Positions 18,147 to 20,112 of a stretch of 64,000 nucleotides of DNA are shown in pieces. The DNA is from Octopus vulgaris. Lineage: Eukaryota. The DNA lies in NCBI GenBank assembly GCA_951406725.2, contig OX597835.1, positions 19,158,001-19,222,000 of the forward strand. The letters are read 5' to 3'. Every line of letters begins with the position of its first letter. Position 1 is the first letter of the stretch. The position numbers and the translations under genes were made by a program. The notes below the pieces were generated by a model. It was not told the origin of the DNA. It searched no databases and saw nothing but the letters and a program-made list of their open reading frames with translations.

Positions 18147-19378
18147 CCACCATCAAGTGTAAAAGTAAAGTATTTGTTACTGGTTCGAAATTAAACTGAC
18201 AGGAGAGAATGTCGTTATGTAAATCTATTTGTAGGCCAAGCCAGTGTACATACTCCACGCTACATTATTATTAGATAAATGCGGAGCGTTAGGAATTGGA
18301 GAGAAAAACTCGAAGGGTTCTCATAAAACAACGCCGAGCACCGTTAATGTAATTTCGAAAGGATCTGCTTAGCAACAAATCAAAAAGACTCTAAGGGAGT
18401 GGAGGTTTGTTAAATACAGAACAAATTTTCAGTGCTGTAATTTGGGGTTTTAAAACTGTTTTCAGGTGTGAAGTAATTATATGATCTGAAATATCGAAGA
18501 CGTCATTGAAACGTAGAGTTACATTAAGAAGAGACGAAGAGCGGCAGAATAAATATCAGCGAATAGAAAGAATTACTAAGCCGATTCATACATACGCTAA
18601 ACCAGGGATGTTGGAAATAAAGAACGTTGGTTGTGGCCGAGAGAAAAATTCTGAAATGAGAAACTGAAACACAAATTAGAGTCGCCCAGAAACAAGAAAT
18701 TACAACGCACTAGATAAAGGCAAATATTAATAAGATTAAATCAGAGAGCAAAAGCAGAATTTGTGAGAACGGAGAAATAATAATATAGCTGTTAAATCAA
18801 TGCAAAAAGCCAGCACAAAAGGAATATAGGTACATGAATGAGAGTATCATTGAAAATTACATCAGATGTTAGGATATTAGTCAAATTTGTGGATTCGAAG
18901 TTAGAGGATGTGTGGTATGAAGAAGAACCAGATACTATGATGGTAAATTACGAATGATCTTAGAGGATTTCAGTGTAGAAAGCAATATTGAAGCAAGAGA
19001 CACAACAAATATGACCGTGGATGTCAGAGAAAGACACAAAAAGACAATATAAGGTCTTTGACTTTGCAACCCTGTAATGTAAAGGAATGGACATGGAAAA
19101 AAATCTATGTCGTTCAAGAATATCAGAATGCAGGCAGAGGAGTAACGCAGGCCATAGTGGTAATGATAAACGTTAGTGGTCATACACTCCAGCTTCATGT
19201 CGATGAAGTGTGTCCGTATACATTCTTATTATCTGCCATGTAAAAACATGTACACATGTATTTGTATTTGTACGTATGAGTGTGCATTGGCACATATATG
19301 TTTATGTATGCGTGAATATACACGTTATGTGTGTATGTGCGCGTGTGTTTGTACATATGTATATGTATGTATGTATGT

Positions 19379-19529
19379 ACTTAGCGGTTCGGCAAAGAGC
19401 CCGATAGATTAAGTACTGGGCTTACAAAGAATAAGTCCCGGGGTCGATTTGTTCGACTAAAGGCGGTGCTCCAGCATGGCCGCAGTCAAATGACTGAAAC
19501 AAGTAAAAGAGTTAAAGAGTAAAAAGAGT
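19379..19529 (+). mobile_element. 5'-truncated SINE-B
   Basis: acttagcggttcggcaaa...gagtaaaaagag. Confidence 0.85.
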
Positions 19530-19667
19530 ATATATATATATATATATATATATATATATATATATATGTATATATATATGTGTATATATATATATATATA
19601 TATGTATATATATATGTGTATATATATATATATACTTTATTTAAAGCAGCAGAAAATTCAACAAAAT

Positions 19668-19705
19668 CTGTTACTCTGAGTTTCTCGTTGCCGTTCATCA
19701 GACAG
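19668..19705 (-). ncRNA. Minimal type I hammerhead ribozyme with canonical core
   Basis: CUGU-CUGAUGA-ACG-GCAA-CGA-GAAAC-UCAGA-GUA-ACAG. Confidence 0.75.
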
Positions 19706-19809
19706 TTTTTGCTACATACATACATACATATACATATGTACAAACACACGCGCACATACACACATAACGTGTATATTCACGCAAACATAAACATATATGT
19801 GAGCAAAAA

Positions 19810-19847
19810 CTGTCTGATAAACGGCAACGAGAAACTCAGAGTAACAG
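19810..19847 (+). ncRNA. Hammerhead copy with a core mutation (CUGAUAA)
   Basis: AAAACUGU-CUGAUAA-ACGGCAACGA-GAAAC-UCAGA-GUA-ACAGUUUU. Confidence 0.6.
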
Positions 19848-20112
19848 TTTTGTTGAATTTTCTGCTGCTTTAAATAAAGCATATTACTCTACCACTGGTA
19901 TTTGAGTACTCTTTTTTCCACCTTGTTTCACATTTATGTGTTTACTCCGGTATATATATATATATATATATATATATATATATATATATATATATATATA
20001 TATATATATATATATATATATATATATATATATATATATATATATATATATATATATATATATATATATATATATATATATATATATATATATATATATA
20101 TATATATATATT

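Follow-up and report, generated by a model that had tools for sequence, protein, structure and literature searches.

A spacer copied in inverted orientation from nearby host DNA between the head-to-head arms of a probable Penelope-like retrotransposon in Octopus vulgaris

Where does the DNA between two head-to-head arms of a mobile element come from, and what can it tell about the way in which the arms were joined? The question is raised by a locus in the window, that is, the whole 64,000-nucleotide stretch of the Octopus vulgaris genome analysed here, in which two inverted arms face each other across a long spacer. How Penelope-like elements form head-to-head repeats is named as an unresolved matter in PMC8557442, and the value of the locus lies in the evidence that it provides on this point. 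Its features are as follows.

19291..19379, + strand: host simple-sequence-like stretch, source and probable template of the spacer (88/89 reverse-complement match; contigs of related organisms B and D)
19380..19528, + strand: truncated piece of a common short repeat (19379-19502 aligns to a longer copy at 26028-26154)
19382..19385, + strand: TAGC, complementary to GCTA at the inner end of the left arm, candidate fold-back landing site
19529..19634, no strand: left (TA)n tract, target of the element (Tandem Repeats Finder)
19635..19714, - strand: left arm, a tail-less 5'-truncated terminal repeat (pLTR; one difference from the 3' pLTR of the intact copy L159)
19713..19801, - strand: spacer, inverted copy of 19291-19379, lying exactly midway in a would-be perfect palindrome in which TTTTTGCT meets AGCAAAAA
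19802..19879, + strand: right arm, 5'-truncated pLTR (alignment to L159)
19880..19950, + strand: tail of the right arm, 71 bases (intact copies L159-L170)
19951..20111, no strand: right (TA)n tract (Tandem Repeats Finder)

Read in reverse complement, 19291-19379 aligns with 19713-19801 without a gap and with 88 of 89 positions identical; this match of 89 bp is the maximal one, and its sole mismatch lies at position 19784. The pairing of 19714-19801 with 19291-19378 and its single mismatch, given in a preliminary description of this DNA, lies inside this match. The same description placed the source about 250-340 bp upstream, beyond a SINE-B piece and a TA tract, in agreement with the measured distances of 255 bases from the end of the source to the left edge of the element and ~333 bases to the inner end of the left arm. 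The truncated repeat piece, which we take to be a SINE, and the TA tract do stand between source and left arm. The first 14-mer of this piece keeps longer upstream sequence in 25/25 of its other occurrences in the fetched loci, and the start of the copy coincides exactly with the truncation boundary of the piece, at 19379-19380.

The stretch common to source and spacer is rich in TA, TG and CA runs, a composition that would favour a chance likeness of simple sequence. The local score of 173 speaks strongly against it: the next-best unrelated place in the window scores 66, the highest of 500 shuffles of the spacer's dinucleotide blocks reaches 41, and the best score to the spacer among 335 other fetched loci is 92. 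The earlier judgement that the match is too good for chance is borne out by these figures. A search of the 2.8-Gb genome, which skips very common words and so does not prove uniqueness, returned the source and the spacer as the only near-identical full-length matches among the 40 of 53 candidates that were scored, and the third-best of these was 94% identical over 52 bases. Nor does the spacer look like an internal part of the element, given that neither the intact copies nor any other fetched arm contains it; its presence in copies at unrelated loci, the observation named beforehand as fatal to a local capture, was not encountered in ~300 other fetched copies. Barring a subfamily outside the scored candidates that carries the spacer, we therefore give next to no credence to chance or to an element-internal origin. 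Since none of the other copies has the spacer, and since the source lies in its native flank elsewhere, as described below, the comparisons support the view that older host DNA was copied, inverted, into the spacer at this locus specifically and that the spacer is not part of the element.

Which of the two stretches is the copy is indicated by the related organisms B and D, in whose contigs the source is found next to its native left flank. These contigs, of 123 and 617 bases, align with 19740-19801 at two differences and then pass into the flank of the source, not into the element; they run unbroken through the stretch common to source and spacer, where a second near-identical copy would normally cause a break. 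No spacer-arm junction was seen in the contigs of B and D, which show presence better than absence, and the spacer is likely absent from both organisms. Because B and D carry the source in its native flank without such a junction, we regard the spacer as the copy and the source as the older sequence. Among contigs of this species (organism A), none was seen crossing the spacer-arm junction, part of the stretch being masked, which lends some colour to an assembly or library artefact in the form of a fold-back chimera. Such an artefact is nevertheless very improbable: one base distinguishes the spacer from its source, the contig that holds the locus is chromosome-scale with zero N in the window, the copy sits precisely between two element ends, and a different capture (L311/L335, see below) is present in two duplicated copies.

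The arms themselves had been described as ribozyme arms; judged from their relatives in this genome, they are assigned not to a free ribozyme element but to the terminal repeats of a Penelope-like retrotransposon of the Hydra clade, of which they are pieces and whose insertion site is (TA)n. The right, longer arm is 98% identical to the repeat that precedes intact ORFs, and long copies lead into reverse transcriptase- and endonuclease-like frames with relatives of ~700 residues. At least 63 near-full-length ORF matches, at least 61 of them stop-free, are present in this genome. The ORF of L159 (~713 codons, in a 727-codon open frame) is flanked by two pLTRs that are 95-98% identical to the window arms and carries RWK at 37, DKT at 113, YRDD at 344, CNCKNESSC (CxCX5C) at 562, GVVY...YTG at 580, CRLC (CxxC) at 667 and CRH (CxH) at 695, the domain call resting on motifs read by eye. 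Since Pfam and PDB sequence scans of ORF pieces and four relatives gave no significant match, the family was identified by motifs; a precomputed PF00078 assignment stands on 1/120 relatives among those listed. The criteria given for the Hydra clade are RWK, DKT in place of DKG, a CxCX5C linker, and CxxC and CxH around conserved E and N (PMC8557442), and these motifs would place the family in that clade.

Elements of the Hydra clade are described as inserting into (TA)n and carrying hammerheads (PMC8557442), and in the standard layout of Penelope elements an inverted pLTR is 5'-truncated and one side bears a tail (PMC3846280; PMC8557442). The window family resembles them in its head-to-head pLTRs, one-arm tail, hammerhead motif and (TA)n target, and in RWK, DKT, CxCX5C, together with a GIY-YIG-type region at the C terminus; it differs in its tail, 71 bases here against 30-40 (PMC8557442, PMC3846280). 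L159 spans ~3.4 kb from the 5' pLTR to the 3' end, owing to a 1.1-kb 3' untranslated part, whereas Hydra-clade elements are under 3 kb, 'generally' in the wording of that source (PMC8557442). Insertion in (TA)n was seen at the window locus and at nearly all loci inspected, although TA at one of the ends was a condition of the pattern searches, which are biased to that extent. The hammerhead core of the pLTR, CUGAUGA...GAAA...UA with stem I CTGT/ACAG, gave 314 motif matches, 133 of them of the commonest form. The hammerhead family was absent from the Rfam scan at the gathering score, and the RNA fold of the right arm was no better than that of shuffles (z 0.2), the folding energy being left unused; the hammerhead is a predicted ribozyme at the level of its motif.

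In the window, the core motif of the left arm is intact (about 19668-19705), and that of the right arm is altered at 19819 (CTGATGA to CTGATAA), with one base missing near 19847. The arms (19635-19714, - strand, and 19802-19950, + strand) differ at 2 of 79 aligned bases, and the left arm's one difference from the L159 3' pLTR is also present in the right arm. The tail sequence continues into the ORF leader in the intact copies L159-L170. In intact copies, by eye, the ATG of the hammerhead core opens a 28-codon frame (19813-19901) into the tail, upstream of the main ORF start; this ATG is mutated in the right arm of the window. Among 12 intact copies, the 3' end is tail-less in seven and tailed in five. 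The family has at least 1,794 exact matches to two 42-base end motifs (571 + 1,223). With at least 61 stop-free, near-identical ORFs (loci L159-L170, e.g. L159:1285-4726), the family looks recently active and abundant; the Hydra clade was described from few families.

How often does host DNA end up between such arms? We examined 265 loci, after removal of five duplicates, of which 263 were anchored; the survey sets are samples, mostly from contigs C1-C3. The unselected set comprised 175 scored loci (two more ran off the fetched DNA and two were unanchored), made up of 122 head-to-head pairs and 53 single arms. The gap between the arms was at most 3 bases in 103 of these pairs, 4-30 bases in 16 and longer in three, for which element sequence or a nested insert provides the explanation. 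As to whether the spacers of such loci match their own flanks, the check proposed beforehand, a local-flank copy of at least 20 bases was found in 0/122 unselected head-to-head pairs (upper 95% bound ~2.4%). The window locus alone passed the local-flank test among all 263 anchored loci, and 43 further loci with the same arm end point, a set that includes the window and one repeat, yielded no local junction copy in the 41 others. A spacer taken from the host flank is thus a rare event, not routine in this family.

Several candidates for further captures were rejected. The local matches of L005, L131 and L135 are neighbouring copies of common repeats, those of L120 and L239 are tandem element copies, that of L332 is a flank repeat behind the tail, and those of L076 and L140 are simple sequence. 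As to long gaps, that of L200 is element-internal, that of L270 is a second element copy, and that of L141 (464 bases, local match none found) is by eye a nested insert, with what looks like a second, different hammerhead core, perhaps of another Penelope-like family. Two loci deserve separate mention. L311 (1528-1620) carries, between head-to-head arms, 93 bases of another high-copy repeat of distant origin, with microhomology on both sides, CTA at the left junction and a CTAGCAA-like stretch at the right one, at the same arm point as in the window; the locus is duplicated 31 kb away (L335) and was counted as one event. L238, first missed as unanchored, is a single arm between TA tracts whose outer flanks form a 43-base inverted repeat, 93% identical (1358-1400 and 1720-1762), with no other occurrence in the search; either another fold-back or insertion of the element into an already existing palindrome may account for it. 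Inverted-repeat flanks are not in excess, with 3/301 element loci against 23/3000 mismatched pairs and 4/298 element-free TA tracts.

Elsewhere in the window, positions 25691-25864 hold another head-to-head copy of this family in a TA tract, with a short overlapping centre, and 33726-34084 hold older family copies, in which a short arm and a 240-base arm, the latter joined to a tail remnant, stand tail-to-tail on the two sides of a TA tract. A diverged 5S rRNA-like sequence (43561-43676, 78.7 bits) directly follows a 1.9-kb ACAT array.

The junctions are informative on how the copy could have been made. When the spacer is taken out, a perfect palindrome is left, and the corresponding empty form occurs at other loci, e.g. 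L044. At the left junction two bases of microhomology (TA) are common to arm and source, the final two bases of the left arm belonging to the spacer as well, and the right junction has none and is blunt. The TAGC at 19382 is the only one in 19000-19634 and lies 3 bases from the switch point, a relation noticed after the fact; priming there would require a 4-base slip between two TAs. The microhomology at the left junction comes to 4 bases with the slip; 2 bases can be chance, and in an equilibrium DNA fold of 19280-19714 the GCTA/TAGC fold-back pairing stays below 1% and is not favoured. The left arm (19684-19693) also matches the SINE piece (19390-19399) at 9 of 10 bases, a likeness found post hoc and not counted.

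Across the family, junction microhomology averages 2.2 bases against 0.75 in simulations, a figure that leans high, since the best of several references is taken and since it covers the 63 cleanly scored of 114 unselected junctions, the other 51 having inserts or being obscured by substitutions. Short element-derived inserts are present at other family junctions, and together the family junctions look like end-joining products. At L301 (1440-1520) and L304 (1470-1520), arm-sequence duplications of 15-55 bases lie at the junctions and suggest repeated priming between two ends. Arm length is 83-90 bases in 61/177 unselected anchor arms, with a similar value in the window, so that both window arms stop at the usual arm stop. 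This pile-up of arm 5' ends, 83-90 bases from the tail-less end, lies upstream of the predicted hammerhead cut by ~40 bases; transcription may start there, or the reverse transcriptase may meet a strong stop.

The target, the arms, the direction of the copy and the junction sequences are observed, and on them we would build the following account, which we hold to be probable, though by no means secure: both cut ends were reverse-transcribed, and the left cDNA folded back on its flank, where it was lengthened by a copy of 89 bases before it was ligated to the right cDNA. First, the endonuclease of the element would cut the (TA)n tract, and cDNA would be primed from both cut ends, at the tail end on one side and at the tail-less end on the other. 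Both cDNAs would stop at the commonest stop of the family, near GCTAG. Second, the lower strand of the left flank would be resected over more than ~250 bases, which would allow the 3' end of the left cDNA (GCTA) to fold back on the same strand at TA/TAGC (19378-19385) and to be extended by 89 bases. Finally, the hairpin would be unwound, its new end bluntly joined to the right cDNA, and the remaining gap filled in. The polymerase would be either a host repair enzyme or the reverse transcriptase of the element, between which the sequence cannot discriminate; the spacer would be a neutral repair scar, with no sign of function.

Two-ended priming is deduced from the anatomy of the arms, itself observed, and from in vitro work on another Penelope element: the anole Penelope protein cleaves and extends both strands in vitro, and two start sites define the tail (PMC11167929). 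Both types of arm end serve as 3' ends in intact copies. The fold-back is favoured by the inverted orientation of the copy and the retention of its source, as a fold-back predicts, and by microhomology at the left junction with none at the right, the same asymmetry as in yeast fold-back inversions. Against it stand the loop of ~333 bases, far longer than the 41-base loop in yeast, the slip needed to use TAGC as the landing site, and the position of the source, much farther from the insertion than the typical template distance of L1 (15 bp).

The preliminary description had a single polymerase leave the element for the flanking DNA and then return. That local flanking DNA was captured in the loop of the palindrome stands; the excursion and return of one polymerase fits worse than two cDNAs, because the right arm carries a 71-base tail and the left arm none, both end types being found in intact copies, and because microhomology is seen at the left junction only. 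In its most explicit form, a single-strand account would have the right cDNA invade the left flank, copy 89 bases, switch back and copy the left arm up to the tail boundary. Self-priming has been proposed for head-to-head Penelope repeats (PMC3846280), R2 cDNA can snap back onto itself or nearby target DNA (PMC11371274), and short copies of arm sequence do occur at some family junctions (L301, L304). Nevertheless, the first switch would take place without homology and would need entry into an intact duplex, the return would rest on a single matching base, and the tail-less end, being the 3' end of 7/12 intact copies, looks like a true priming site and not like a stop of copy-back. We thus find the single-strand account distinctly improbable.

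When the copy was made is a further matter. Its capture during insertion, as first described, is the probable timing; arm-arm divergence (2/79) and spacer-source divergence (1/89) are indistinguishable (p=0.6), which fits either timing. A perfect palindrome could have been inserted first, and a later cruciform break or fork stall at its centre could have led to the same fold-back copy, by which the palindrome was stabilised. This later-break reading may be called palindrome centre-break revision. It would account for the spacer standing at the exact centre of the palindrome, between GCT and AGC with zero arm bases lost, which counts against insertion-time formation inasmuch as a later break would also give it. 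Perfect centres exist elsewhere in the family, TA tracts flank the site, and palindromes with a short or no spacer are described as break-prone (PMC7999016).

The survey of palindrome centres points the other way. Loops of at most 4 bases were found in 7/26 pairs with identical arms, 7/23 with one difference and 11/40 with two or more (rho 0.11, p=0.29), a comparison in which arm-to-arm conversion could hide an age trend. As near-perfect centres are equally common in older and young pairs (11/40 against 7/26), age does not seem to bring a revision of the centres, which favours formation at insertion. Moreover, unpaired arms also stop at the GCT/AGC point, so that symmetric ends need no earlier palindrome. 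A later break at the centre is in our view unlikely, if less so than the single-strand account, and formation by fold-back at the time of insertion is the reading retained here.

The process proposed is already known from other retrotransposons and from the repair of broken DNA, and the window locus is a further instance of it, of which the ~333-base loop is the one unusual feature. Yeast double-strand breaks give rise to local fold-back inverted insertions of 2 to ~150 bp with the source kept, primed by inverted microhomology at one end and captured through end joining, with 0-5 bp, at the other (PMC11724301). Here too DNA close to the junction has been copied in inverted form while its source stayed in place, and the microhomology of the left junction may have served in a like way; unlike the yeast case, which involved 10 bp of imperfect homology, a 41-base loop and a nuclease cut, the window locus has 2-4 bp and its far longer loop, and the folding end would be retrotransposon cDNA (PMC11724301). 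Polymerase theta likewise makes snap-back inverted-repeat insertions copied from break flanks, but its inserts are of 3-10 bases, far shorter than the 89 bases found here (PMC9962433), and the enzyme at this locus is not assignable.

Among retrotransposons, human L1 provides the closest counts: templated local inserts were reported in 22 of a set of 3,598 insertions, with templates under 250 bp (10.1101/2024.08.27.596794), and local inverted duplications have been ascribed to self-annealing of resected ends (10.1101/2024.12.14.628481). As in L1, target-proximal DNA appears to have been copied, rarely, into a new insertion; unlike in L1, where a template is typically found no more than 15 bp from the site, the source stands 255 bases away (10.1101/2024.08.27.596794). 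L1 twin priming leads to non-overlapping inverted pieces, whereas both arms here copy the same pLTR stretch. With R2, too, DNA synthesis starts from the cDNA 3' end, copying the cDNA itself or, less often, target DNA close by, yet R2 primes from one strand and joins target DNA, and here the partner end would be a second element arm (PMC11371274). Captures of host DNA by Adineta Penelope elements, between the ORF and the 3' pLTR or between pLTRs, are, unlike the one at this locus, untraced to an inverted local flank in the available part of PMC3846280. Further related literature includes PMC2912911 and 10.64898/2026.07.22.740005. The literature searched, incomplete in coverage and exclusive of supplements, gave no description of such a fold-back host-copy spacer in Penelope elements; one match to the fold-back wording was rejected, the words being used in another sense.

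An insert of host DNA between two untrimmed arms is most easily explained if the arms were separate DNA ends that needed joining. Because the family offers both intact copies and its many end-motif matches, the question of how the repeats form can be tested genome-wide. It is conceivable, at odds that we put slightly below even, that thousands of young head-to-head insertions are each the joint of two cDNAs made from opposite cut ends, with captured spacers, such as the local one here and that of L311, as snapshots of the open two-ended intermediate. If so, the family would provide in vivo evidence for two-ended target-primed reverse transcription, and would constitute a large natural data set on the formation of inverted repeats.
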